Assembly (NCBI GenBank): GCA_030141605.1
Contig: JAQGDQ010000200.1
Span: forward strand, 248,001-312,000
Direction: 5' to 3'
DNA from: Tubiluchus corallicola
Taxonomy: Eukaryota > Animalia > Priapulida
DNA: 64,000 nt
Shown here: positions 3,852 through 60,044 of the stretch, one piece after another
Position numbering within the stretch: the first letter of the stretch is position 1
Layout: each line of letters opens with the position of its first letter
The notes under the pieces: model-generated
Told to the model about the DNA's origin: nothing
Seen by the model: only the letters and a program-made list of their open reading frames with translations
Database searches by the model: none
Made by a program: the position numbers and the translations under genes

Positions 3852-5537
3852 CTAATGTCGGAGAAATGGCAAATGGATCTTTTCCGCATGTTACTTTATG
3901 TAATGATCGTGACATGTGTATATCCAAATTACGTTTCACCTTTAAAATCTTAGTAGCTTACCTTGGTTTACGCATCGTTTTATTGATTGCTATCAGTTTG
4001 TTATTTCCCAAAAATATATTGCAACAAAAGCACCTTGTAACCGCACCTGATTACACCTGATCGCACCTTAACGCAAATTTAGTCTTTATTCATATCAAAC
4101 TCAATGACTGTACCACGTAGACCACCAGTTGGTTGGATTTTAAAGTTTCTAAGACAAATGTCGTATATAAAAAGCATTGCCGTATTATTTTATCCTTGAA
4201 AACTGGTTTCGTTCTGTTAACATGACATTAAGACGATAAAAAGTCTAAAATAAACTAATGACATATGCCGGTCGTGTATAAGCCGCATTAAGAACCATGT
4301 TTTTTTTTCTTTTTACATTTTGAAAACGTTCGATAAATCTCATTTTTACTCGTCTTTATCTTTTATATACAATTCGGAACATTGCAAGCCGGAGTCTAGC
4401 AGGAGCAAGTTGTGCTAAATTGGATGGTCGTAGCGATACCGGCATCTGATTCATTTTTCTGAAACAGTGAGCACACGATGTAATTTATCGTCTACAGCAA
4501 CTTGCCTAATAGATTTTTACTCGTCTGCAGATTCGATAAACGCTGCTTTACCCACTTTGTCGCACACAAACCTTTATTAAACATGCTTAATTTGAGTAAT
4601 ATATGGCATTATTTTGTAAAAAGTATGATATGAAACGTAAATGTTTAGATCATAGATCAATGTTCAAAAACATAGATATGAGCAATGATGAAAAATTTAA
4701 ATTTATCTTCGGCAATGATGATACGAAAGCGTTAGTATTAATTTGAAACTTTGTCAGAGATTATTTTAAAAGCAGTCAAAATAATTAAACGTCCGTCCAT
4801 TGTTACGTTTGTTACGGTATTTTATCATTTAATTGTCGTGTGTCAAATGAGTATATTATGAATCAAATTGTAATGTTGTGATTTATGAATCTGCCTTATT
4901 GTCATTAATATTTTGTAAATATGTGTTGTATAATTATTGTAATGTATTCGTGCAGGATTGTAAATCCAATAAATTAAATTAAATTAAACTTAAATTAAAA
5001 AATTTTTTGTCTCTGACAAACTAAACTGTTCTCGTGTGCGGGCTCGATATAAAATTTGTATACCGGAAAACCACGTCAGACTAATCAGAAGCAATCGTTT
5101 AGTCATGTGTTAACTAATAATAATAACTAATAACTGTTTCCGCTGTTAGTCGTGATGTCTCATTTAACTTCAAGCAAGAGACGATTTGCGTCAAACAGGT
5201 TTTTCAGACAGATTTTTTGCCATGTAGTATTAGCCACGTTCATATTGCAAATATCAAACAACGTCAAGCGCGATTTTTGTGTAGTACAAGATAACCTTGG
5301 GAACGCACACCATTCGCGTCCTTTTATTTTCTACCGTAGATTTAACATTTTGTAGTATTTCCACTTTTTGCTCATAGATGGCACAACTAGGAAAATGTTT
5401 CATGGAAGTGTTTGATTATTCATTGGTTAGAATGTGCAGTAGCCCTGCGCTTCAGTCTGCTGGTTGACATCACCTATGCTAATCACCTATGCACCTATGG
5501 TATCACTCACTCATACGTCAGTCAGTCACTCATTTTA

Positions 5538-5617: not shown

Positions 5618-7324
5618 TTTCTCTCCAACCGCCCATCCATTTGTCCTGCCTTGTCGCGAAGTTCGCCTTAATTACTTCGCGTTCATTAACTTGACTTTTA
5701 AATATTACATAGTGTCTTCAGAAAAGGCTAACAGGCTTATTACTTGTGGGCAAAGTTTAATTTCAGTTCCAGCTGTCTCGCCTATTTCATTGCCCACATG
5801 CCTATCAGATTCTGCCATATACTACCCTTACCTACCAACCTGCTTAACAGCCTGTTTGTTTACTTGCGTACCTGTTGCTAGCCATACAACATACTACTTA
5901 TCTAGAAGTGATCTTAGCTTTTTAGGTTCATCGCATTTCTTTTCGTTACTGGAGGCTCGAGTTATTTTGAATCCAAACGTCTCTCTTTTCATCATAGTCA
6001 CTCAGATCAGATGTTAATAATGGTCTCTCCTCTTTCTGTTGTTATTGTTGTTGTCCTCGTCGTTGTCGTTGCAGTTGTCATGGGGTCTTGACGGTGGTCA
6101 TCGTCGGCATTTTAATGTGTAAAAAACTTGTGTAACTGTTTGCAGCTATGCATTGTTAGAAGTTATGGCGATGGTACGAGTAATAGAAGTTTTGACCAAT
6201 GACGTCACAGTGTTTTGCTAGTTGAAGATATAAAAATGCCTTGCCAAGATGTGCAAAATATCCTGTCGGGTAACGATGCAGAAAACCACATTCCACCAAG
6301 CTTTTTACTATTCGAATTCAGTCTCTACTCAGTACTCGGTAAATATTATGTCTGTCATTGTGCAAAGAGTAAAAAATTACCCAGAAACTGTTGTAGGCAT
6401 GACAGTGTTTGGCCATGGAGATTTAAATTACCGGATCTACACACAGCTAGACAGTTTGACCAGAAGTCAAACGGATCTCCGCACAGCTACACACTTTGAC
6501 CAAAAGTCAAGGCTAAATACCGCTCTTTTTTATCCATAGTAATTGAACAATCCTCAAACCCATCTGCTGGATTTGTAATACATTTACGCAATAAGTTTTG
6601 TATGGAATTACGCTGATTAAGCCCCTCCGCTTAGCACGGACTAAAATCTCATTTATCTGCTTTAAAATATGTAAAAGTTTTTAAATTTTATTTGCTACTT
6701 TTTTCTTAATAAAAATAAAATCTAAATAAGAAAAATAAAAACAAATCATCTATTTTGTGGATTATAGATTTATTCCGTAGATATAGTAACTCGCTAACCT
6801 CTGAGACAGTATGCCAAGCAGACATTTTGAATTTTATCACTTACCCAGATTTTGAACTATTTTACACTGAGAAAATATTATTGAACCCAGAGTGTTATGT
6901 TGCGCTTAGAGAAAGTTGTTTCACTGCATTAGAATCATAAATGTAAATAACATCACATCAGAACGATGGCAAACAAATACGTTGAAATCAGAGAAAAATA
7001 TTTGTTAACTCAGCGTAAGCGAAGCTAGCTTTGCCTATTTAACATTTCTTAGGCACAAAATTATATGATAATTAAATTGTTGACAGATAAACCTGATGGT
7101 CGATAAAAATATCATAACGTCACGTTTTGTAAAACCATGTATAATGCGTAAACATAGAAGAGAAATTACGTTTAAATATATAATAGATATAAATAATATA
7201 TCAAATATATATATTTGACCTCCTTCATCATTGCAAAAATATATCTTTGACATTGACTTTACATGTGGTATAAGTACATTAGATGCCTGAATGTTTCTTT
7301 TTTCACTGTCAAATGTTTGGCAGT

Positions 7325-25872: not shown

Positions 25873-27064
<1,192 letters not shown>

Positions 27065-27853
27065 GTTCTTTCACCTGTATTACTGCAACGAACTGCCCGA
27101 ATTATAAAACTCGAAAAGTGTTTTTACCTCGTGATATTTTTCCGATAATGTGATGCTTCTGAAGCAGCTTAAACTTATGTTCAGTAATTGGCTCACTACA
27201 GTTTCCGGTCTAGGTTTATGTGCACGCCCATTGCGATTTACCTACCATACATAGCCCTATAAATATGAGGATAACCATTTTTGCTAGGCAATTTTGACCA
27301 ATTTAGATGATCATTTGTGTCATTGTTAACAAGTTGCTGCACATGTTTTCTTGCGTGGTTCACTGTCAGTGATACACTGTCATTACAAGGTCTCAACGAT
27401 TGGTATATGGCTACTATAGTTTAACCAAGCGAAAGGTTATCATCGATTATCCAATTATCTGTCCAAACCAATACTTTTAATTTATCAATATACCACAGAC
27501 ATCTACCATTGGAAACTGATAATGTAGACAAAAAGGCATTATTGTTTACATGTGAAACTTTAAATGTAAAAAAGAAAATAAGGCGTTGACATAAGACACG
27601 TTGAATAACATTTTGTAGTAGTAGCAGCAAGCAGTAGTAAGACGAATGCGTTCGGTCTAACTGAATTAATAAAAATGTGTTACATAAAACTAAGGTAAAA
27701 CATGCTTACTCATCACCAAATTACTAACTACAAAGTCCATTATAATATTATATACCTTTACAATTACCGTATATACGAATAGAAGGGCAAGGTAACTAAA
27801 TCTTGCAATATGCAAGTTTGTGTTTTACTTCTATATAGGGCCTGAATTTTACC

Positions 27854-27854
<1 letters not shown>

Positions 27855-27909
<55 letters not shown>

Positions 27910-30790: not shown

Positions 30791-31183
30791 TCACTTATAT
30801 CTTTTATACCCACTACTGGGCACTTCTATTCTGGCGTCGGCGGCTTCGGGATCATCCAGCACTAAACCAGTGTCTCCACCTACCACGTTAGGGAGATCTT
30901 CAGAATTTTCAGGCAACTTTTCTATCATTATCTCTGGAAAACGAGGAGGAGCCTGAGTTTTTGCTGTCGTTGTTGCCGTTGCTATTGTCTTTGCTGATGT
31001 TGATCGCATTGATCTTGATTTCCACGGGTTTTGAATGTTGTTAAAGTGAAAGAAATTTACCCGGGGTTTGTAAATTCCAGGAACCCATTGTGAAATTTCT
31101 TTTGCCGTAGGCATATGAATGGTCCAGTCAAATGAATGTAAGGGTGTTACCAAAATAAAGATTAAAACCAGCTTCCTACACAT
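30791..31183 (-). CDS. Secreted DP-motif family member 9 (130 aa, divergent)
   Basis: Signal MCRKLVLIFILVTPLHS; PRVNFFHFNNIQ (strand motif without the Cys); Thr-rich linker; GGDTGLVLDDPEAADARIEVPSSGYKRYK*. Acceptor ctttttacag lies 1 nt before the ATG, with a donor near 32004 and TATAAA near 32062. Confidence 0.8.
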   Translation of the reverse strand: MCRKLVLIFILVTPLHSFDWTIHMPTAKEISQWVPGIYKPRVNFFHFNNIQNPWKSRSMRSTSAKTIATATTTAKTQAPPRFPEIMIEKLPENSEDLPNVVGGDTGLVLDDPEAADARIEVPSSGYKRYK

Positions 31184-31329
31184 GCTGTAAAAAGAACAAG
31201 ATCAATTACTAAATACATGTATACTTCTTTTCTCTCAGCTAAGGGGAAACGGCTGTATTTCAAAATAGTTCTTGATTACGTTATACCACCTACTTGCTCA
31301 CACATGTGTATTAAGAAAGACATCATACT

Positions 31330-31452
31330 CTTAGCAACAATTAACCTGACGGGTAGCAAACTGAAGGAGCCGCTGAAAAATTGTGGACCAACCAGGAACT
31401 GAATCTAGTGACATTGGCGATTTTTTTCGCACGTTCTACCATTTTAGCTACT
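31330..31452 (-). mobile_element. Degenerate tRNA-derived SINE-like element
   Basis: The minus strand begins agtagctaaaatggtagaacg (A-box-like), has a decayed B-box, then gtccacaatttttcagcg..cctt, which is shared with 37640-37750. Confidence 0.5.
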
Positions 31453-32615
31453 TGCCCATCAAAGCAGAGCAGGTGAGATCTGATATCTTGTCGCAACATT
31501 ACATAATCAGTCAGAGCCACCTATATGATCCTAGTGATACATAGCACTACATTTGAAGATACACACATACACCCTCACACACTGTAATTACACACTATTA
31601 TATAACACTGTTATTTCACAAGTGTTTAACAAAAAGCATTAATTGTAAAATAATGTAATAAAATTTTACATGTTGTTGGCCCCGAAAACTTTAATATATT
31701 AATTTATTTCTAAATGCTGCATTATTGCTAAGTTTATTCGTATTTGTAAGTATTAAAAACTTTATTCAAGGTAAAATGCTTTTACAGCATAACCAGAAGA
31801 GAAAACACATGAGACGATTATTCTCCATTAAATTTTGTAGTAGAGTCTATTCATAAAATTAACAAAATTTTTCTTTTTTCCCAGCATCATTTGACTATGA
31901 AAGTAAGTGCTTTATCTTTCGAGAAATTTCGATCATAGAGTCGCGACGTAAGCGATTGTAATTAAATTAAGTTTTATATGGAAATATTTGCACGCACATC
32001 TTACCTCGTTTCTCATTCAGTAATACAAGCGACCGCACAGGGTAAGATTTTGTGTAAGAAATTTATACTGCGCAAGAAATATTTATTATAAGCATCCGAA
32101 AAATAGTTTTCACTGTAAAAACGTTAAGTAAAATACATTACCGCGAATGTATATGAATAAATATGATCAAGTAACTAAACATTTTGTAAAATTCACTATA
32201 AAGGATGTTAGTGGGTAAAGGAAGAGGATTGACTTCCGAACAGTGTGCAGTGTAGGTAATGATGCCAACGACGATGCAAACCTCTTTTGGATGATTTTTG
32301 TTTAACTGTTTTTACTATGGCACACTACACTTCATAAACGGCGTGTATGGTGTATGATGAAAGAGTACATAAAACTGGAACAGGTGTACTTCAGTGCACA
32401 GTCCTGAAGCTCAGAATTTACTCCTGGACCTGCAATTGCGCAAAGAGGGCGAAAATTTGCAAAAAAAAACGTACCACAAATAAATTTAGAAGTATAGTTG
32501 TGAAATTGTTACTTTTACCGTCTTTATTGGTTATACGCTAACAACTACAAGGACTGTTCTAATTTTTTGTGCCAGTGACTTAATTGTAATTACTTAATGA
32601 TATTGCGTTGCAGTA

Positions 32616-32674
32616 ACAACAGGACGACAAGGACAAGGACAACGACAACGACAACGACAGCGACAGCGACAGCG

Positions 32675-32714
<40 letters not shown>

Positions 32715-38326: not shown

Positions 38327-38922
<596 letters not shown>

Positions 38923-40799: not shown

Positions 40800-41498
40800 T
40801 ATAAGCAATTTCTAAACTAAAATGAGGCCTGCTTTATTTGTAAAGGTCATAAAACTATTACATTTCATTGATTGAAGCAATTCGTGTTTGTACAAAAACT
40901 AGAATTTACAATGTTTGTTTAAAAGTGAGTGAAAAGTGAGTGAGTCTTCCCGACAAAAGAGTACAAGGAGCCATGATGATAATCACGGCTGGCAGCCTAT
41001 GTTGTAGGAAAATTATCAACGTATCACGATCGTCATCAAATGTATATGATTAAAAATATAAATAAATAAATACATATATATATATATATATATACATAAA
41101 TATTTATTTATTTATATTTTTAATTATGTATATGTGAGGTGTGTACATACGTAATCATCGTGTATTGCATTTATACATAAATAACCAATTATGCTAGTAA
41201 TAATACTGCATCTTTTCGTTAATACAGTATGCAGTTTTTACCATAATTATCAAAATAATGGATCATATACATTTGATGACGATCGTGATACGTTGATAAT
41301 TTTCCTACAACATAGGCTGCCAGCCGTGATTATCATGGCTCCTTGTACTCTTTTGTCGGGAAGACTCACTCACTTTTAAACAAACATCATAAATTCTAGT
41401 TTTTGTACAAACATGAATTGCTTCAATCAATGAAATGTAATAGTTTTATGACCTTTACAAATAAAGCAGGCCTCATTTTAGTTTAGAAATTGCTTATA
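40800..41498. repeat. Large fold-back inverted duplication (arms 40800-41050 and 41262-41498) with an internal palindrome at 41051-41123
   Basis: The ~240-bp arms are near-perfectly complementary apart from small indels. It is flanked by (TA)n and lies in the 5'UTR intron of Gly-rich gene B. Confidence 0.9.
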
Positions 41499-48265: not shown

Positions 48266-51200
48266 CTAAGAATAGTGTTGATTTATGGCTCTACCAATCA
48301 CTAGCCTTCTTACTTCACTTGTTCCAGCCCCAATTTCATAGAGTTTAGCATCACGCACAAGTCGTCCAGTTGGATAATCATTGATGTAGCCATTACCACC
48401 TGAAATAGGACAAGACAATTGGTTTAAAACGGTCTAATATTATATAATAATTATTGCACAACATTCAAACAAGCATATTAATGCAGCAAGCTTATTATTG
48501 TTAACATCTTCAGAAAAAACTTCACAATTGTTCAGGTTTATTTCTGATACATACACTAAGTTTTTTTTAACACTGTTGACATAGTGTAGTACCAAACTTA
48601 GACAAACAAACTGTTTTTACAAGTTAGTACATTTAAGGTGATATTGCTAATGCCAAATTTGAAATCTATGAGCATTTAGGTTAAATTCATAGGGATGTGT
48701 TATAGTGTTTCAATGCATAATTCAATTGAGCTACATATGTCATTCAGTAAGATTGGTTTTTAATTTTGCATAGCATAGACTATATGAGACGAGTTTATTC
48801 CTACAGATATGATTCACTTATCCGATTTCATTTCGTCAAATTTGACTGCACAGACATGTGCTAGCTAGCGCATAACTAACAAGCACAATTAAAACAAGAT
48901 GTCTACATCGAGTTAGTTTCGACAACAGCGATGTACTAACTGGCACTAACAATTTTCTCATAAAAATTGGTTAGTAATCTAGGTGTAAAACAGGCAAGGA
49001 TCAAATGACTAGAAAGCATAGCTTACACTGTAAGAAGATAGAACTGATACTATAATTTTGTAGTTACACAGTTAACTAACATACACTGGCAATACTGATA
49101 CAAAAATGAATATAATATCTCTACCTAAAGCCTGCAAAGCTTGCAAGCAAACTTGTGTAGCTGCTTCTGCGGCATAGAGTATAACTCCAGCACAATCTTT
49201 GTTATTTATATGACCTTTATCAGCTGCTCGTGCAACATTATAGACGTACGACCGTGTAGCATTTAAGGTCGTATACATGTCCGCCATTTTTCCCTGCATC
49301 AACTGTAACACAAGTGACTTGAAAAAATTTACAACAGAAAATACAAGTCTATTTTACATTTGTAAGGCAATGCTTCACTAAATGGTTTATTGTGTAACAG
49401 ATTTTTTTATTTATACTTTGGCGGGAAAGCTGAAGTTCTAGTGCATCAATAGTAATACAGTAGTCGCCGCTTAATAGACTCGCGGTTGATAGACTCAATC
49501 GCCTAATTGACTCAAAAACGCCTGGAACGGGCCACTTCTATTCAAATACACGTAAAAACTATTGGCAAGTGACTCAAATAACTTTGCTTAATTGACAATA
49601 TTATTCCTTCACGTACTTAAAATAAGACATTTGTATGTGCCCAAACAGCCTTTCTTACTTTTATGTCATCTTTACTTCCCTTTTGTGCATTACATATGTA
49701 GAAACAATCATGTTAAGTGCCATTTTGTTTGTAAACAGGTACGTTTATCATGCGCTAATATTCTACCATAGCAGTTTTGCTTTAAATCTGTTACCCGTTT
49801 GCCCACTGCAATTAACCTTGTTACTCGGCACCACCAACTGCAGATCAAGCATGCCAAGTGCTAAATGTTTTACACACACGAGAACTTTGTGAGTGAACTT
49901 CTTCGAGAGAAAATGAAGCAGCCAACTTTGAAGGAATTTTTGTAATTTTTGCAAATAAACAGACTTGTGTGATTTAGAAAAATATACCTTTTAATTTATT
50001 ATTAATTCACTTCCCGTATTTTCCCGTGTATAAGAGACCCTTTTTTGCTCAGAATTTTCACTTTAAAAATAGGGGGTCTCTTATACATGGGAGTAAGTCT
50101 TTTCAATAAGATGCATAAATTGTGGCACTAATGATTTTAAAGAAATAAGTGCTCTACAACTGTTTTGCGTGTGGCGTTCGACTATGAAGCGGTTGTAAGC
50201 AATACAGGCATCGTGACACAGGCATTATCTCCTCGTTTTCTCTTTTCCTGTTACAGGTTTGCAGGTACGCACTTTAATATATACCAGTACTCTTTTTCTA
50301 CAACACATTAACTGGTTTTATTTTGTTTTCAGTACCGCACTGAGTTGAAAAAAGTTGTACTTTACCCTCTAAAAATGTCCGTCTGAAAAAACTTTTTTCC
50401 AGAATTTTTGCCTAAAAATTGAAGGGGTCTCTTATACACAAGGGTCTCTTATACACGGGAAAATACGGTATATAAATTAATATTTTAAAATATTTTTTCT
50501 AATCTTTAACCGCACAAAGAAATTTAGGCATTACTCGTTTCTAAAATGATTAAAAACCTTTGCAGTGCATAGTAAGCTGATGACTCATACTTCTATAACA
50601 GTAATACAACAATCACTGGTTAATAGGTTCAATCAGTTAATTGGGTCACAACACGTCAGTCCCAAAGTGAGTCTATTAAGTGGCGCCTACTGTACTATAA
50701 TACAGCAAGTGTTGCTGTCAGTAATTTATAAAGAATATATATCATAAAAAATCCTAGTAAACATGCTAAACATACTAGGTAAAGTACATTTATTGTCACA
50801 GCTTAATTTTCTGATATATTTGAATTGTATTTTGAAATACAGATGGCAGCTGAAAAGAGTTACCTGAAAAGTGCCAATTTTTTGACCAAATTGTTCCCTC
50901 TGATGGCAGTATTCAAAAGCGACATCACAAGCAGCTTGCATTAAACTGAAGAAAAAAATAACAGCATTTTTTTTCAAAATTTCATATCTAGCTAGTATGG
51001 CAGCATTAAAGCAAAGCAATCAAATTCAATATAATTTTAAGCTCCAGAAAATACATGTATCAGCCTGGGTTCAAAATCTGATTTTTAGATAATACTACAC
51101 AAACTAAGGGTGTAGACTACATCTCTATCTCTCGTACAATACTAAGGACTTAATAACCGCTGTTAGTTTGTACAGTTCCTCTAAGACTGATCTGAGAGAA

Positions 51201-54200
51201 TACACCTGTTAACCAGAAAACAAAAATATTATTAGAGCTTGACTGTTATAAATCAATAAGCAATTTTTACCCTATCGGTCCAGCAGATAAGACTAGCCGC
51301 TCTATATCCAGTCCAGTCATCAAAACATACACTCCTTTATTTGTTGGTCCGAGCAACTGAGATGCTAGAATTTGAATACATTTGTATTCGTATTCAACTT
51401 TTTAGAGATGTTAGTAATTTTATCTTTGCATATAATACAAAATGGTTAGTTCCAAGATGTTATACAAGAAATGCAACTTCACCTGCAAAAATTATGCCAA
51501 AAAATTCAATAAAAAGATTAAAGTTTCCCAAATCACATTTCCACACAGCATTGCGGTTAGATAAAATTCCATTAATCAGGTGCTGGTAGTACTGAAACTT
51601 TAAAATCCAATGTCTAATGCTACTGACATAACAAAAAATTGTTACTGTCTCTATCTACATGCGTAACCAACATATTTTTTACTATTTTTTTAGTCTACAG
51701 AAAAAATGTTGGAGGAGTGGAAAAACCATTACGAAATGACTCAATCCAATTTGAAAATCTCACCTACCTTGTGTGCTCTCTTTCTACACCAGTTGCCGAC
51801 ACTAATCCTATGTACCGTTTTTTGCTTATCTATCTTATTCTTTCAGAATTTCGTGGATTTAAACTGCCACAAAACACGTTTTCTTTGCTTTTCCCTAATT
51901 TGTATGCTTAAAGTTATGGAATACAAAACTACTTACGTCACGATGGTAGCTGCAAAGCACGCATAGTTACACTGCCTATTGTACGTCCATACTTTCAAAT
52001 ATAATTTAAAAACTCCTTGACTCCAGGAAATAACCAATCAAGCATAAAACAAAAAATGAAAGGAAAAAATATAAAAGCCACAAATCAGTACCTGTTTTGC
52101 ACTTTTAAATGTATCTGCATCAAGGAGTCACACCACTGGCTAAATTAGAAACCTCATCTAACATTCAGGATACAAATATTTTATACTAATACTCTTTCAC
52201 AATATGTTACGCGTAAACTTGTTACTATCCATTTTATTCAGAACAGTTAGCTGAAAATGAGACCCATTATATCATTACAAACATTAGACAGTTCTATACA
52301 TACACCTACACACATTTAAAGTCTTCAAAGCGTTTAAACTCAACACTATGAATGTCAAACCTACCCGACACACCCAGACGCTCCCAAGCCACGCTCCAAA
52401 TCTAGTCCTGACATAAGTATGTACACGCCCTTTCCCACTCCTCCAACTAGATTGGCAGCTATTTGCAATCCATGCAACAATAACAATTATTAGTATGGTT
52501 ATAAAGTTCAATGAGGAAAACAGATATTAAATAGTAAATAATATGTGTGCACATGCAAAGCCAGTCATATATTGAGTCATAAAAAATCATAAAAATTCAA
52601 AGCATCAAAATTTTTTTCAGTTAATTTATGTGGGAAGTAATTGGTTATTAAAACAATCAGTATTTAATACTTTTTGCAACAACAGGTGACAGAGTGTCAT
52701 GCAACAGCTATCTGCAGCAAGTTTTATGAATGCAAAGTTTTAAATGCTTTTTAGAAAGGTTAGGAAATCTAACCACAGTGATGCAAAAAATATGATTTAA
52801 GCTAGCTGCCGGAATGATCCAGTGACTATTTTGAACATAGATGTACATCACTTTTTTTGCAATTTCACTTTAGCTAAATGGTGAAACTATCAATTGTTCT
52901 GAAAACTGAAAGCACTTATTTAATCACATAATTTAAAACAACTGGCAATTTTTTTGTCTTACCTGGAACTTTACAATCTTCAAAAATTAATTCTCCAGTT
53001 GGAGACCCTCGCATTCCAAGTTTATCAAGCTTCTTTCCGATGCTAAAACCTTCAAAATCCTGCAGTGTATTAAACACAGTGCTTTTATTAAATGTGCTCA
53101 TTTAATTGCTCATGCGAAAAACACTCGAATTAAGTGTGCCAAAGTTACTCTCCCACCCAAAGCCACAGCTAAATATCAATACTAGGGATGGGACAAAAGT
53201 TTGCTACACAGGCAATTCGGGTTCCCAATTCAAAGCGTAGCTTCGATTCGGATCCGACCCAGTTTTACTTTACCTATTTCGGGCCTGATTTTGGTTCAGT
53301 AAAAAAAGGGCAAAACAGTCTTCCTAATTCGTGTTTACTTAGTTTAGGAGCAAATCCGTTGCCAACTAGTAAAATTTACGTAATTTCCCTTTTTACTGAT
53401 TAAGTCTCTAATAAAGGTTATATTTACGATGCGTTCCTCACCATGTTGACACCTTTAATGTAACTGCAAAGTTCTGTAAAAGTTGTGATCTATGGCAAAA
53501 ACTAAATCTGGACTAAGAAACTTGACTGTGTTTAGAAAGACCATCAAAACATCCAATACAACAAATCCTAATGTTGCAGTAATCCTAAGATGAAAAGCCT
53601 AACTGGCATTAATTAACAAGAAATGGCTATTGAAAATTGAAAGCAAATATAAGATTCAGAATCGGTTCGCTTTTAGAAACTGGAAAGATGTGAGATTCAG
53701 ATTAGCTTCAGCTTTGGAAAATCAAGTTTCGTCCCACCCCTAAACAATACCAGAACACTTTTCATTAAATAACAATGTTTTTCTCAACTCCTGTTGGATA
53801 AAGCCAAATACAAGATATTTTCTTAACAAATCAAAAAACATTCTGCTTTTGCTTTACAAATCACAGATCGCTTAATGTCTTCTAAATGTGAAAGTAGACT
53901 TACGCTATTTTGGAAAATGGCACAATTTATAAAATTGTATTTTCTTAAAAGCAAACGGGTGCCTTCAGGAAAAAGGCCATTCCCTAAATTTGCTACTTTA
54001 GATGTAGATTAAGTTAAAGTTAAATATAAGCATCAGGGCCTCCAATCCCAAAAATTCAGGACCCTTCCTGTGCCTTTTTCTTGGTGAAAGTGGGGATTGG
54101 AAATCTCAATCCCGGATAGTTCTGGATTTTTGGAATTGGCAATTGGTTAGTTGGGACTGGTGATTTTATTATTCAGAAGCTATATTCGGTTTATTCATTA

Positions 54201-57200
54201 TTTCCTCTCAAAACAAGTAATTACTGCTTCCAAATAAAACAAAAAAGTTACTAATGAAACTCAGGATATTTTACTTGATGTATAATTATGAACAGCTAAT
54301 TAGCAACGTGCATTAAAACAGCATGAGAACAGTAATCTTCACTGGAATCAAATCCTAAAAATCTGAAGATTAGAAAATGAAATTCCAAAATAAGTGGATT
54401 ACAAAATATCTCAGGACTGGAAAAACCTAATAGCAATAAAGAAACTGACATGAAGCTATTTTAAAACCAAAACTAGATATTAATATTTATATGGTCAAGT
54501 ATACCTTTTCTACAATAAATGTGCTAATTCCATGTGCAGGAGTATCAGCATGCGGATCCGTTCTAGCATAAACTATTAACACATCGGCAATAGGACCATT
54601 AGTAATCCAGAACTTGCTCCCATTAAGCACATAATAGTCACCTATAGTGAGCAAGGGTATTTTTATTAATTCAATTTGGTATAAGTGGTAAAAGAGTTAG
54701 TACATTTTAAAAATGTGGAAGGGGAATAGGATTATAGTCATTCTCTGTGCTTTGCTATCAAGTTAAGCCACATCAGGCTCAATTAGTAAATGACAGGGTG
54801 ATAATCAGAAAACTAGTTTTTGGCAGTTTTATTTGATAAAAATTAATTTTTTATAATCACCAGTCCATTTACAAAGGCAGGCTCTGTTTTATTTAACTGC
54901 TCTGAGCACATGTCATGACAACCGGCTTCTATTACTTCACTGATAATTTTGGCAGATGGCGATTTTAACATATTTTAACAGGTGACAAAGGACAGAAAAC
55001 AGTGTAAAATGTTATACTATTCAAAACATCTACAAAACTACGGCAACTAAAAGACAGCATTATAAGCTCATGCCTCATTTAATCAATTGGTATCTTGATT
55101 GTTTACTTAGATACAGATACCAACCATTAACTTCTAATTTCTGCATCACCTTTTTTCTCAGCCTTTAGCTTCATGCTGACTACATCTGAACCAGAAGTGT
55201 GTTCACTCATGGCTAGTGCTCCAATGTGCTCACCATTTATTAACTAAAATTTAGAAAACGGGAAGTTTTAATAAACGGAATATAAAGAACTTTCAGTAAT
55301 TCTAATGCAGGTAAATGTTTGACATATTAACTAACCGCAGTACAAAAGGATTGGGATAGTAATAAGGTTTACAATTTCTTGTGTGAGAGAGAAAAACCCG
55401 AGTCTCGTTTCATCTAAGTGTATCAGGCAGTTTTGTATTGACTGTTTTATTGTGCATAGAATAAAGGCATTTTTTAAAATTACAATGTAGCATAACCCCT
55501 GTACCTAAGCTAACTTTCATACTATTTGGTACCTTTGGCAAATACTTTTCTTTTTGCGCATCACTCCCATGCCGTCTCAGTTGATTAACACACAAATTAG
55601 AATGAGCTCCATAACTCAGAGCAATGCCACCATGTCCACGTGACATCTCTTCCATGACTAAACAATGATCCACGTAGGAACCTTCTGACCCACCATATTC
55701 ACCTAGGTATATTAACCAGCTAGCAGTATAATATAATCCACTGTTTAATGTTTATGTAGCTGGTTCATGAGATTACACAGAAGAATAAAATATATACCAC
55801 CAGCCAAATTGTAAAGGTAGTTGGAATACCGCTTTAATAAAATACAATATTTACACAGAAATTGTCTTCATAAGGTGCTAAATTAAAAAAGCTAGGATTT
55901 AGCTTGTTTTTAAAATTGCTGCTGTTTTTTGTAATTTAAACTTAGTATTTCGTAAAATTTTTACACTATCCTGCACTATGTCTTAGAAGTCTGCTTGTAA
56001 ATTTAATTTAACTTTATTTTATATCGAAACAAAGTGCTATTCTCCAGCTAACTGTATAGTTTGGCTGGTTGTGCATACATCATTCTAAGTTGAGCATATT
56101 ATTCGATAACTACCCACTGATGCTAAAAACATTTTAAAGTAATAAGGCCATAGTATAATATTAGTGATTAAATTAAAATTAATGGGTCACTTAAAAAAGT
56201 TTAGTTCCAACCAGATAAACCATCATCAAGCCAACTAGGCAACATTACAAATTTTAATGAATCTTCCAAATTTAAAACCATATGTAAGTATTTCAGTAGC
56301 TCAGAAGCTTAGAAACAAGAATTATGAGTGCTTACTTTCTGCAGTAATGCCTAGCAGTCCCAGGTTTCCCAGTTTTTTCCAGAATTCCTTTATCTCAGGA
56401 AAACTGTCATTTTTATCTATTTCATCTGCTTTTGGTGCCAATTCATTTTGGACAAAGTTAAAAACAGTTTGGCGCAACTGAAAATAAAAAATAAAGCTGC
56501 TATAAAATATAAAATGTGAAATATGCCTGTACAGATTTTCACTGTTAATGCACTAATACTACAATAACACTTTTTACAATATGCTGAAAGCTTTGTTGTG
56601 TAACACATTGCTGTTAGATGAAAATTATATGCAATGAGATTGGCTAGTAAGCAACAAATGTGTGCTTGCAAACCAAAACCATCGTTAAGTTGGCATAGTT
56701 AAAACTACGGTCTGATGCTTCAAAGTAGAATGCACCAAAATTTTGGTCTAATGTTATTTTTTGTTTTTTTATAAAAACAAGTGCTAAATATATTGGACTT
56801 TTACATTCTAGCATCAAATTATCAAGAAAATGTCCAACAAATACCAAGAATTTAATTTTATAAACCCGTGCCCATTTCTCTGCCTAGAAACATGTACAGC
56901 AATTGCAAAGCCCAAATCTTTGTCAGGAAGAGCCGTCTACTGGATTTAAACATAACTTCAATGTGCTCTTGCAAAGTCCATAGTACCACACTTTTGTAGA
57001 GACGCGTCTAAATACAATGGCTGTCTGTAAAAGTGATTTTCTCAAGATTATGTTTCTCACTGCATAGCCTGCACCTCAACTTCAACGTGGATTATCTCAG
57101 CTTAGTATCAAAATGTTCCTCATGAAATAGAGATTGAGAGTACGTGAATAACTAGAAAACATTAATTGCTGACTTATGGATGATTTTGCTATACAAGCAC

Positions 57201-57659
57201 ACAAATAATAAATGAGATTCAACGTGTACTGACGTTTTTAATTATTATTATTACATAAACAAAGACAACGGATGGTGGCAGTACGCTTAACAACTCAATT
57301 CGTGACCTGTCTCTAGTGTCCTACTTGGGCAGCCCATATACGACGCGTCCTACTTGGGCTAGCCCGTGCACGACGCGTCCTACTTCGGCTAGCCCATGTA
57401 CGCCAATTGTCCTACTTCGGCTAGTGGGTTACTCGGCGCCCTACACAGCGCTCTCCACCAAACTGGTAGCCTAGGCTTATCAAACCACAAAATAAAAAAA
57501 CAGGCAAAATACTTGGTGTTGTTCTTCTGTGAGTCCAAACAAAGTATCGTCGACAGGAAATGTAGAAGCTGGTCGTGCAGCTGCATTTACAGGTCTTGAT
57601 CTCAGCAAGAGAGCTGAAATTTTTCTAGAACTAAAAGATCTAAACAGTTTAGCAGCCAT
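48266..57659 (-). CDS. IVD: Isovaleryl-CoA dehydrogenase, mitochondrial (424 aa)
   Basis: Exons 57513-57659, 56336-56477, 55533-55702, 55150-55243, 54505-54641, 52963-53059, [52365-52458 or 51271-51364], 50864-50945, 49125-49302 and 48266-48399. All are GT-AG and phase-compatible (1275 nt). The N-terminus is transit-peptide-like ([13 protein letters not shown]), followed by [71 protein letters not shown] and [30 protein letters not shown] (IVD-type GAG). Confidence 0.95.
49458..50692. mobile_element. Non-autonomous Tc1/mariner-pogo-type TIR element in an IVD intron
   Basis: TIRs cagtagtcgccgcttaatagactc / gagtctattaagtggcgcctactg, each flanked by TA. Confidence 0.8.
50014..50468. mobile_element. 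MITE (Tc1/mariner-like) nested in the previous element
   Basis: 27-bp TIRs ccgtattttcccgtgtataagagaccc / gggtctcttatacacgggaaaatacgg, TA on the right flank, and internal copies of ggggtctcttataca. Confidence 0.8.
51271..51364 (-). CDS. IVD: IVD alternative exon 7B (94 nt, canonical-type)
   Basis: aattctag|CA TCT CAG...ATA GG|gtaaaa encodes (A)[31 protein letters not shown]; same length and phases as 7A. Confidence 0.9.
51708..51725 (-). promoter_or_regulatory. Intronic element complementary to the 5' part of IVD exon 7A
   Basis: In the pre-mRNA, UUUUUCCACUCCUCCAAC can pair with exon 7A GUUGGAGGAGUGGGAAAG (52447-52430): 16 Watson-Crick plus 2 G-U pairs, no gaps. Confidence 0.6.
52365..52458 (-). 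CDS. IVD: IVD alternative exon 7A (94 nt)
   Basis: gcaaatag|CT GCC AAT...GTC GG|gtaggt encodes (A)[31 protein letters not shown]; phase 1 in, phase 2 out. Confidence 0.85.
53183..53742. mobile_element. Non-autonomous hAT-like element
   Basis: TIRs tagggatgggac / gtcccaccccta; 8-bp target-site duplication atcaatac / aacaatac (one mismatch). Confidence 0.75.
57318..57425. repeat. ~30-bp minisatellite, about 3.5 copies, in IVD intron 1
   Basis: Unit gtcctactt(g/c)ggctagcccatgtacgacgc repeated with variants. Confidence 0.85.
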
Positions 57660-59207
57660 GATCTTGCTATCTTTGCTCCAAACTTGATTGTGCGAAAAAT
57701 CCTAAAGATTCCTCATATTGTGTACACTGCTTGGCGCGTGTTCATGGTCAAAATTTCAATAATTTTCCATGCATAATGTGAAAAAGATAAGAAATCATGA
57801 AAAATGCAATGCAAATTTGTTTGAAATTATTTACTTTTGTGCTGCAAATGATATAGCCGAATTCAAATTATTTTAAAATATCTGTTATTATTTGTCCAGT
57901 TATTTTAAAAGAGAATTTCGTGCAGAACAGCTTCTGACTCTAGTTCTATCACAGTGCTCAGGTATTACTGTTTTACCTTTACATAGGTTGTTGGCTTATG
58001 TCCGCTTACAGATGTTATATTCTCTGGTTTACTGCATTAAATTTTACTAGTTTATTCATCCACGCAATTTTTTCAACGAATTCGTAACCATTGACATTGT
58101 ATGCGATGCTAATGTTTGTATGTATGTAAAGCCACCATAAGAAACACCGGAACAACACGAACTTAGCCGAAATAAACTTATTCAAAACAGTACAGAAGTT
58201 TTATAGTAGCAGACTCATCAGCTTAAGGCGATAACGTTATAGCTGATTCCAACAGAGAAGCCCTTAGGCTAACAGTAAAATAATAATGCTTTCGTCACAT
58301 AGGATGTGACAGAGGGTGCACAATTGAAGCCATAGTCCTCTTATATATACTTGCCATTTCCATAATATATTCTAATTCAATTCATTTCAATTTTATTTGT
58401 ACAAATACTGAGTCAATATGTTGCTGTACACATTAAATAAGTCTTATAATTATCATCGGAATAGAAAAATTACAAATGTTGAAATTTGACCGTGTATTTG
58501 GACATTGTAGGTTCCTGAAATCAAAATGTACATGGGCAAAAAATGTAAACTACAAGTTAGATAAACTTTGAATTTGAAGAATGGCTTTTCTCTTTCTGAC
58601 ACATGCAGTACTAAACAAGGGAGGAAAGCCACGTGGATGTATTATCGCTAAATACTCTAGACAATGTAACTTTGACTGTCTGATTTTTTTCTCGACAGTA
58701 TTTGATTCAGAGAACCAGGATGTTTTTATAATAGGGAATCAATCTGTACTGCTTTGTACTCATTTATGCAAAATATCATGCAAGGTCAAGTGTGATCAAA
58801 CGTTTAATCAAGCGTGTCAGTTACATCATAGTACGTATGGCCAACTCATTAGGCAATACTCATAAATTGAATCAGCACTGATATACATAATAATCCTACT
58901 GTTCAAAGTGTGACTCATTCATCAGAAATACCATGCAAGTTCAGTGTTTATTCAAATGTGTCTGTTATGCCATAGTACTTATGGCCAACTCACTAAAGGA
59001 GAATCCATCAATTGAACAGTGGTGACATGCATAATATTCTTACCATTCAAGAAGGATTTTTCTTAGTAATCCTAATTTGCGATACATTTACTGAAAACAT
59101 GCTAGAAATGAGCAGTTTACATTACTGTCACAATTTACGTATTAATATTTTATATAAAACGTGTTGATGTAGACTTACATGATTTGAAATGCTTTACAGC
59201 TCTGAAG

Positions 59208-60044
59208 ATGGATATAGATACTCAAGGGTCTGGAGACCACGATGGGAATATTTTGCTGGTCAAATTAGACAATGCCAGAACAATGGCTAACATTCTCAAA
59301 GGCATACATTTTAAAGAGACAGCAACTATTTTTGCAAGCGACAATGGCCTGAAAGTTACTGTCGAAGATGCAAAGTGTGTGCAGGCAAATGCGTTTTTGC
59401 AAGCTGCTTTGTTTAATGATTATGTGATCAGGCAGGAAACAGTCAGCTTCAAATTTAACTTGACAATCTTGTTAGAGTGCTTGAATATTTTTGGTTCAAG
59501 TGTGATACCTGGTGTTACCACTGCGTTAAAGATGACTTATTCTGGTTACGGGGCACCGCTTGTTTTGTTACTTGAAGAGGGTGGAGTCATTACTGATTGC
59601 AGAATTAAGACACTAGAGCCTGATGATGTTTTAGATTTTGACTTCTGTAGTGACAATGTTGTTAACAAAATAATAATGAAATCTGAGTGCATTAAAGAAG
59701 CATTTTCTGAACTAGACATGACCAGTGATGTTCTAGAGATTTTGATGTCACCAGATGCTCCATTCCTCCGTTTTTCCACGTTTGGCAATGGAGGAAGTGC
59801 ACATGCTGATTATCCACGAGATTCTGACATGGTTGAGGTTTTTCAGTGTGCTCAAACAACGACAAATAGATACAAAATTTCTTTGCTAAAGCCATCAGTA
59901 AAAGCATTAACTTTGTCTACAAAGATCTCACTGAGGACTGATTTACGTGGCTTCCTTTCATTACAGTATATGATAAAAACAGAAGACGGGCAGATATGTT
60001 TTTTAGAGTATTTTTGTGCTCCTGATGAAGAAGTCGAAGGTTAA
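59208..60044 (+). CDS. RAD1: Cell cycle checkpoint protein RAD1 (9-1-1 clamp subunit), 278 aa, intronless CDS
   Basis: LDNARTMANILKGIHF, GLKVTVEDAKCVQANAFLQ, LLECLNIFG, GYGAPL.LLLEEGGV.TDC.IKT, EAFSELDM, SP.APF.RFSTFG.GG, YKISLLKPS.KAL.LSTK.SLRTD.RGFLSLQYMI, F.EYFC.PD. Acceptor gctttacag at 59199 precedes the ATG. Confidence 0.93.
   Translation: MDIDTQGSGDHDGNILLVKLDNARTMANILKGIHFKETATIFASDNGLKVTVEDAKCVQANAFLQAALFNDYVIRQETVSFKFNLTILLECLNIFGSSVIPGVTTALKMTYSGYGAPLVLLLEEGGVITDCRIKTLEPDDVLDFDFCSDNVVNKIIMKSECIKEAFSELDMTSDVLEILMSPDAPFLRFSTFGNGGSAHADYPRDSDMVEVFQCAQTTTNRYKISLLKPSVKALTLSTKISLRTDLRGFLSLQYMIKTEDGQICFLEYFCAPDEEVEG

Follow-up and report, generated by a model that had tools for sequence, protein, structure and literature searches.

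A predicted exon–intron RNA duplex at a duplicated active-site exon of isovaleryl-CoA dehydrogenase in the priapulid Tubiluchus corallicola

How does a gene that carries one of its active-site exons in two copies choose between them? This question is raised by the gene for isovaleryl-CoA dehydrogenase (IVD) in the priapulid Tubiluchus corallicola, which lies on the minus strand of the 64,000-nucleotide stretch of DNA analyzed here (hereafter the window); all features below are on this strand unless stated otherwise. A tblastn exon map places the coding span at 48266–57659, and the gene is intron-rich, with 10 exons per transcript. Exon 7 is present in two copies, the proximal 7A (52365–52458) and the distal 7B (51271–51364), each of 94 nt, which lie between the constitutive exons 6 (97 nt, 52963–53059) and 8 (82 nt, 50864–50945; supported by the exon map, an RNA contig, and a spliced-frame test). 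The two copies are homologous, share length and phase, and have AG/GT ends, which is the tandem-duplication pattern of mutually exclusive exons. The reading frame is open for 424 residues with either copy, while inclusion of both leads to a stop at codon 303 and skipping of both to a stop at codon 264, with exon junctions downstream in each case. Transcripts in which exon junctions follow an early stop are subject to nonsense-mediated decay. One contig, from a run presumed to be RNA and ~93–95% identical to the window, joins exons 6, 7B, and 8 at GT–AG introns; no RNA contig extends over 7A, and the 7A form is known solely from annotated isoforms of other species, where RefSeq contains exons of the same type.

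In a quick tree of 30 proteins, built without the exon 7 segment, the window protein is sister to that of Priapulus caudatus (SH-aLRT 99, 80% identity). A coding-looking stretch on the plus strand (59200–59900) lies just upstream of the gene as a divergent neighbor. Within the gene, intron 8 contains nested, MITE-like inverted repeats (49453–50697; arms 49453–49481/50669–50697 and 50000–50042/50440–50482) at >1000× single-copy depth, and intron 1 contains a high-copy repeat region (56650–57450) that includes a short tandem array near 57320–57440.

Exon 7 aligns without gaps to residues 265–296 of human IVD (8SGR). In the human enzyme, Glu286 is the catalytic base, Met280, Asp284, and Arg287 contact CoA, and Leu127 together with Leu290 forms a barrier that limits chains to C4–C6 (Ju et al, 2025; PMC12369846, available part). 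Compared with the human structures (1IVH, 8SGR), the window protein keeps the equivalents of the catalytic Glu286 on helix G, of Leu127, and of Gly406/Ala407. Exon 7A also retains Glu286, Met280, Asp284, and Arg287, but at the position of Leu290, on the pocket floor, it has a Gly codon (52382–52384, from the ungapped alignment to 8SGR), which leaves the 7A form without Leu290; exon 7B has the canonical Leu. The choice of exon matters because 7A preserves the catalytic Glu and the CoA contacts and yet exchanges Leu290 for Gly. This exchange is predicted to deepen the pocket of the 7A form and to make room for beta-branched acyl-CoAs of greater length.

The same exchange is found in other animals. 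Among 126 IVD-like proteins, position 290 is Leu in 111, Gly in 8, and Ala in 3. In all 10 same-species isoform pairs that were compared (Priapulus, two Branchiostoma, Tubulanus, Haliotis, four oysters, and Watersipora, and thus a priapulid, amphioxus, a nemertean, molluscs, and a bryozoan), every difference lies within exon 7, and one form has Gly or Ala where the other has Leu (nine pairs) or Val (one pair). The exon pair is already annotated in RefSeq, as unnamed isoforms X1/X2 in molluscs, Watersipora, Tubulanus, Priapulus, and Branchiostoma; NCBIfam draws no distinction between these types, and a literature search, mainly outside subscription journals, found no paper on mutually exclusive, duplicated, or alternative exons of IVD or acyl-CoA dehydrogenases. 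All 12 A-type copies group together in a tree of 28 exon peptides, which does not include the Branchiostoma rows and has low power (FastTree support 0.88). The phyla that share the exon pair have been separated for more than 500 million years. The grouping in the tree fits a single origin of the A-type exon before the protostome–deuterostome split, with convergence as the alternative. In Ostrea edulis, isoform X3 (P0032) has yet another version of the exon, in which position 290 is Val, and oysters may carry three exon copies.

The candidate for control of this choice lies in the intron between the two copies, where a short stretch (51708–51725) is complementary to positions 12–29 of exon 7A, a purine-rich exonic arm (52430–52447). 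On the transcript, the two arms form 18 uninterrupted pairs, which comprise 13 Watson–Crick pairs, a G-U pair, three A-U pairs, and a second G-U pair, with an energy of −29.0 kcal/mol. The two G-U pairs add little, because they are located in the segment that pairs with a run of U. The helix begins at exon position 12, 11 nt from the 7A acceptor, and the 7A donor falls within its loop; the intronic arm is 640 nt past this donor and 343 nt ahead of 7B. The inverted copy, its 18 pairs including two G-U wobbles, its start 11 nt inside the acceptor, and the looped-out donor are all as described in the initial annotation of this DNA, which had also claimed that the match stands out. By energy it does, with equal or better stability in 1 of 2000 dinucleotide shuffles of the 7A–7B intron (mean −13.0, sd 2.3); length alone is a weak criterion, because 20 of 2000 shuffles reached at least 18 uninterrupted pairs with G-U allowed. 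No helix as strong arose at any location in 120 shuffles of all cluster introns. The duplex ranks first for exon 7A among 127 real 1-kb tiles of the window (runner-up −24.9), is the sole outlier (z −6.8) of 20 exon/flanking-intron tests in the IVD gene, and has a 13-mer core that matches only these two sites with at most one mismatch. Rfam returned no near-threshold match for an intronic snoRNA or another known RNA. In the X3 contigs over this region, which are at least 99% identical to the window, the arms are unchanged, a near-identity that leaves little to compare.

Such a match could also be a neutral by-product, either a recent short inverted copy of the exon produced by template switching or a chance match, that has no effect on splicing, with proteins (RBFOX, for example) and a weak 7A acceptor deciding between 7A and 7B. 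Strong inverted repeats are frequent in this DNA: when both arms are free to lie anywhere, 7 of the window's 28 other 2.2-kb tiles contain a helix as strong, one of them within a high-copy repeat. The third codon positions in the arm match fully (six in the window), and this perfect match suits a young copy as well. The window additionally contains long inverted repeats at 38425–38679, 41050–41336, 26938–27909, and 30989–32702 (86, 75, 57, and 29 pairs, respectively), which are probably mobile elements.

Consistent with the pairing that was originally proposed, the duplex dominates the predicted fold of a 1311-nt region, with a mean pair probability of 0.89. The probability that the exonic arm is unpaired falls from 0.31 to 0.05 once the intronic element enters the transcript, and 7.0 and 8.9 kcal/mol must be spent on opening the arms locally, about half of the gain. 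In the model, the duplex masks neither 7A splice site: with the element, the unpaired probability changes from 0.41 to 0.29 at the acceptor and from 0.47 to 0.55 at the donor. The next-strongest helix in the exon cluster reaches −17.0. A 12-bp helix between exon 6 and exon 7A (53005–52994 with 52451–52440; −17.0) occupies part of the duplex arm and is a potential competitor of the duplex; it is no stronger than the shuffle mean of the region (−17.8).

The folding results bear directly on a claim that the duplex enforces mutual exclusivity, chiefly by blocking 7A-to-7B splicing as R1R3/R3R4 do in ATE1, which the initial annotation had offered as one of two possible roles. In favor of this role, the 7A donor lies in the loop of the duplex, which would be complete before 7B is transcribed. 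A docking site, however, is a single site with at least two competing partners, one per variable exon, and exon 7B has no such partner in the 7A–7B intron (best −14.3, with 35 of 200 shuffles as good). Intron–intron pairing tests in the window were likewise negative, with 74 of 150 and 84 of 150 shuffles as good. Because a competing partner is absent, the window element is not a docking site. Since transcripts with both copies or neither already carry early stops, frameshift and decay would suffice for exclusivity. This part of the annotation therefore finds no support in the window, and we regard enforcement of exclusivity as very unlikely; the duplex is likely not needed for it and likely biases the choice against 7A instead.

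To compare the locus with its counterparts, metagenome contigs were scanned for an A-type exon followed by a donor, which yielded four loci (L001–L004); pattern scans of prokaryote genomes and viral contigs gave no additional loci. L001 was excluded from the counts: at 92.8% identity it is a near-copy of L003, truncated 329 nt past exon A and thus short of the L003 element. The other three carry the entire A–B intron, with A upstream of B. The nearest relative of L002 is Bugula (88%), and that of L003 is Watersipora, judged on 31 residues only.

In L002, a perfect 15-bp complement of exon A positions 78–92 lies 33 nt into the intron (locus positions 2202–2188, minus strand). It pairs with exon A at −31.3 (0 of 500 shuffles as good) and fits exon B as well (−27.8, 1 of 500). 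The ability of this element to pair with either exon would favor a role in exclusivity, but in the model exon A's local hairpin forms to the exclusion of the pairing with B (pair probability 1.00 vs 0.00). In L003, 37 pairs in four stacked helices (−57.3 kcal/mol) join the last third of exon A and its donor to intron positions ~417–457, so that the pairing covers the donor itself, in contrast to the unmasked splice sites of the window. This duplex is missed by an uninterrupted-helix test without splice-site flanks (36 of 300 shuffles as good). L004 has three exon copies (1276–1369, 4267–4360, and 5824–5917) with Ala, Gly, and Leu at position 290 and no exon–intron duplex (206 of 400 shuffles as good). 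Instead, a 27-bp helix between the A–B intron (5144–5170) and the intron after B (6810–6836) loops out B (−46.3; the lowest value among 40 shuffles was −25.4), and the 6810–6836 site can pair, more weakly, with the intron that follows the third copy (−32.4; none of 60 shuffles as good). In silico, this is a docking-site/selector layout, with the docking site downstream and selectors behind the first and second of the copies as listed, found in full only in L004 and in part in L002. Its presence counts toward a role in exclusivity, and the comparison with Dscam, 14-3-3, and Mhc that the initial annotation had drawn fits L004 but not the window.

Two further features of L002 were noted. Another IVD paralog, arranged in tandem on the minus strand, precedes the main gene; its introns are short, and it has a B-type exon only. 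The A–B intron contains a 14-nt tandem repeat (82–136; fifth copy at 544) whose copies can all pair with a single site close to the exon 8 acceptor, at position 734 of the intron after B. Pairing between them would loop out B, but at 13 bp and −20.0 (12 of 150 shuffles as good) it is not significant alone.

The layout was assessed in a matched test of each mapped exon against each flanking intron of at least 100 nt (47 tests, 400 shuffles each). Under two stricter scoring schemes, exactly three tests gave at most 2 of 400 shuffles as good, in each case exon A with the intron that follows it (window, L002, and L003); thus, in two of three schemes, three of the four exon A/downstream-intron tests were positive compared with 0 of 43 other exon/flank tests. 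The stricter schemes were chosen after a permissive one, which was run first, has little power, and detected L003 only (window 42 of 500, L002 171 of 500). A windowed RNAduplex search gave 1, 0, 0, 13, and 41 of 60 shuffles as good for the window, L002, L003, L004, and L001, respectively. In whole-region folding, with one to four shuffles per locus, the shuffles overlapped the observed counts in three of four loci.

Pairing of some kind is present in all four complete loci, and an exon A/downstream-intron layout recurs in two of the three other complete loci, while sequence and position are not conserved. The arm lies in the 5′ part of exon A in the window and in the 3′ part in L002 and L003, and none of 12 cross-species element/exon pairings passed, each element fitting only the exon of its own species, down to every third codon position in the arms of the window (six) and L002 (five). 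The distant loci hence share a duplex layout and not a sequence, and conservation of the element in species that keep 7A, on which the annotation had staked its proposal, holds for the layout alone. L002 and L003 both resemble bryozoans, and their elements bind the same region of exon A, so that a single event may account for the two duplexes.

These comparisons cut both ways for a neutral origin. The turnover of sequence and position across loci is what it would lead one to expect, the full match at third codon positions extends to L002 (five positions), and permissive scoring does not single out the window duplex. Against it stands the recurrence in two of three independent orthologous loci, at the same exon and intron, when none of the 43 other exon/flank tests gave a comparable match. 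A neutral origin is thus the main rival to a repressive duplex, although we consider it unlikely.

An exon paired with its own downstream intron is also the classic layout of A-to-I recoding, and the intronic arm could serve as an editing-complementary sequence through which ADAR gains access to exon 7A. An AAG (Lys) codon lies in the exonic arm, at a position where the A exons of oysters and an ark shell encode Arg. At 18 bp, however, the duplex is short, three of its adenosines are at synonymous third positions, and the L002 and L003 duplexes cover different codons. Editing ranks among the least probable of the readings weighed here.

The closest known system to the window duplex is the balancer Ubs6.1–Dbs6.40 of the Drosophila Dscam1 exon 6 cluster, in which sequence at the first variable exon base-pairs with an intronic element farther downstream and represses proximal exons (PMC8791459, as excerpted). 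In the same source, it offsets first-come-first-served splicing, with partners that are partly lineage-specific. The window arm resembles it in lying in the first variable exon and pairing with a downstream intronic element, but is wholly exonic, from position 12. The balancer extends over the 3′ splice site and, in a cluster of 48 exons, acts in concert with a docking-site/selector system; the window has two exons, and no docking site was found. Docking-site systems (Dscam1; 14-3-3 and Mhc according to the available part of PMC11802352) combine tandem exons with long-range pairing, as L004 does, but differ from the window, where there is one partner only and one arm is coding. The window duplex therefore falls outside both the docking-site class and the strict balancer class.

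A second parallel is human ATE1, which, like IVD, is an enzyme with two duplicated exons (7a/7b). Among its elements R1–R5, R2R5 controls the ratio and R1R3/R3R4 ensure exclusivity (PMC7797038, in the text accessible), and the window duplex resembles the ratio-setting R2R5. As far as that account goes, the ATE1 elements lie in introns or extend over splice sites, show conservation across species, and compete, in contrast to the single non-competing exon–intron duplex of the window. A duplication model for competing RNA structures has been put forward (PMC6071210, in part), and partial texts of PMC11802352, PMC11153573, PMC5798300, PMC13027082, and PMC9767951 provide further background.

Exonic arms, for their part, have been reported for beetle Dscam1, where exonic selector sequences are proposed to act at exon 6 (PMC8042237, excerpt). 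By this precedent, the duplex might activate 7A. The beetle partner, however, is upstream and brings splice sites together, while the window partner is downstream and encloses the donor, and the L003 pairing covers the donor itself. Activation thus appears as improbable as editing.

Protein-based control leaves traces of its own. Three UGCAUG motifs of the RBFOX type lie in the 504 nt upstream of 7A (52698–52703, 52552–52557, and 52471–52476, the last within the pyrimidine-poor acceptor region), a number matched in 39 of 5000 shuffles, and none is present in the other nine introns of the gene. The 7A acceptor has 7 pyrimidines among 17 positions (−20 to −4), the fewest of the 10 acceptors. In Caenorhabditis elegans egl-15 (exons 5B/5A), Fox-1 family proteins repress the proximal exon through UGCAUG upstream of it, near its acceptor (PMC2777236, part of the text). 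By analogy, the trio suggests a second, RBFOX-type repression of 7A. Control of egl-15 is protein-based, however, whereas the window offers motif enrichment alone, and L002 and L003 have no such enrichment. For a neutral origin of the duplex, the motif cluster and the weak acceptor supply the alternative control that it requires. Steric exclusion through a far-upstream branch point was considered for 7B and rejected, as its branch-like motif is ~50 nt from the acceptor in a 1000-nt intron.

Taken together, we propose with moderate confidence that the predicted duplex is a ratio-setting repressor of 7A, the first-transcribed exon, with 7B as the default. After ~660 nt of intron have been transcribed, the element would pair with the purine-rich 5′ part of 7A, and pairing 11 nt from a weak acceptor, with the donor looped out, would hinder exon definition of 7A. 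As the element would be complete only ~660 nt after the donor, there would be a time window for commitment, and 7A would be chosen only if committed before the element is transcribed or if a protein blocks pairing. The three upstream UGCAUG motifs might add RBFOX-type repression in some tissues, and the removal of transcripts with both exons or neither by nonsense-mediated decay would secure exclusivity. Of the control claims made initially, silencing of 7A by default is thus supported indirectly, by the dominance of the duplex in the fold (0.89), its layout in two of three other loci, and the one RNA contig with 7B.

If this proposal is correct, RNA folding sets the balance between the ordinary enzyme and a predicted form with a deeper pocket. 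The locus would then provide a two-exon test case for exon choice under an exon–intron duplex without a docking site, and for the turnover of RNA structures while the exons stay conserved for more than 500 million years. More tentatively, and counting three duplex layouts in four loci, IVD may have had a switchable active-site exon (Leu/Gly) since the bilaterian ancestor, which would give it two chain-length ranges, and lineages may have separately evolved duplexes that restrain the Gly exon. The exon pair also points to an isoform of a textbook metabolic enzyme that has gone undescribed, one in which the swap of a single exon takes away the residue reported to restrict chain length.
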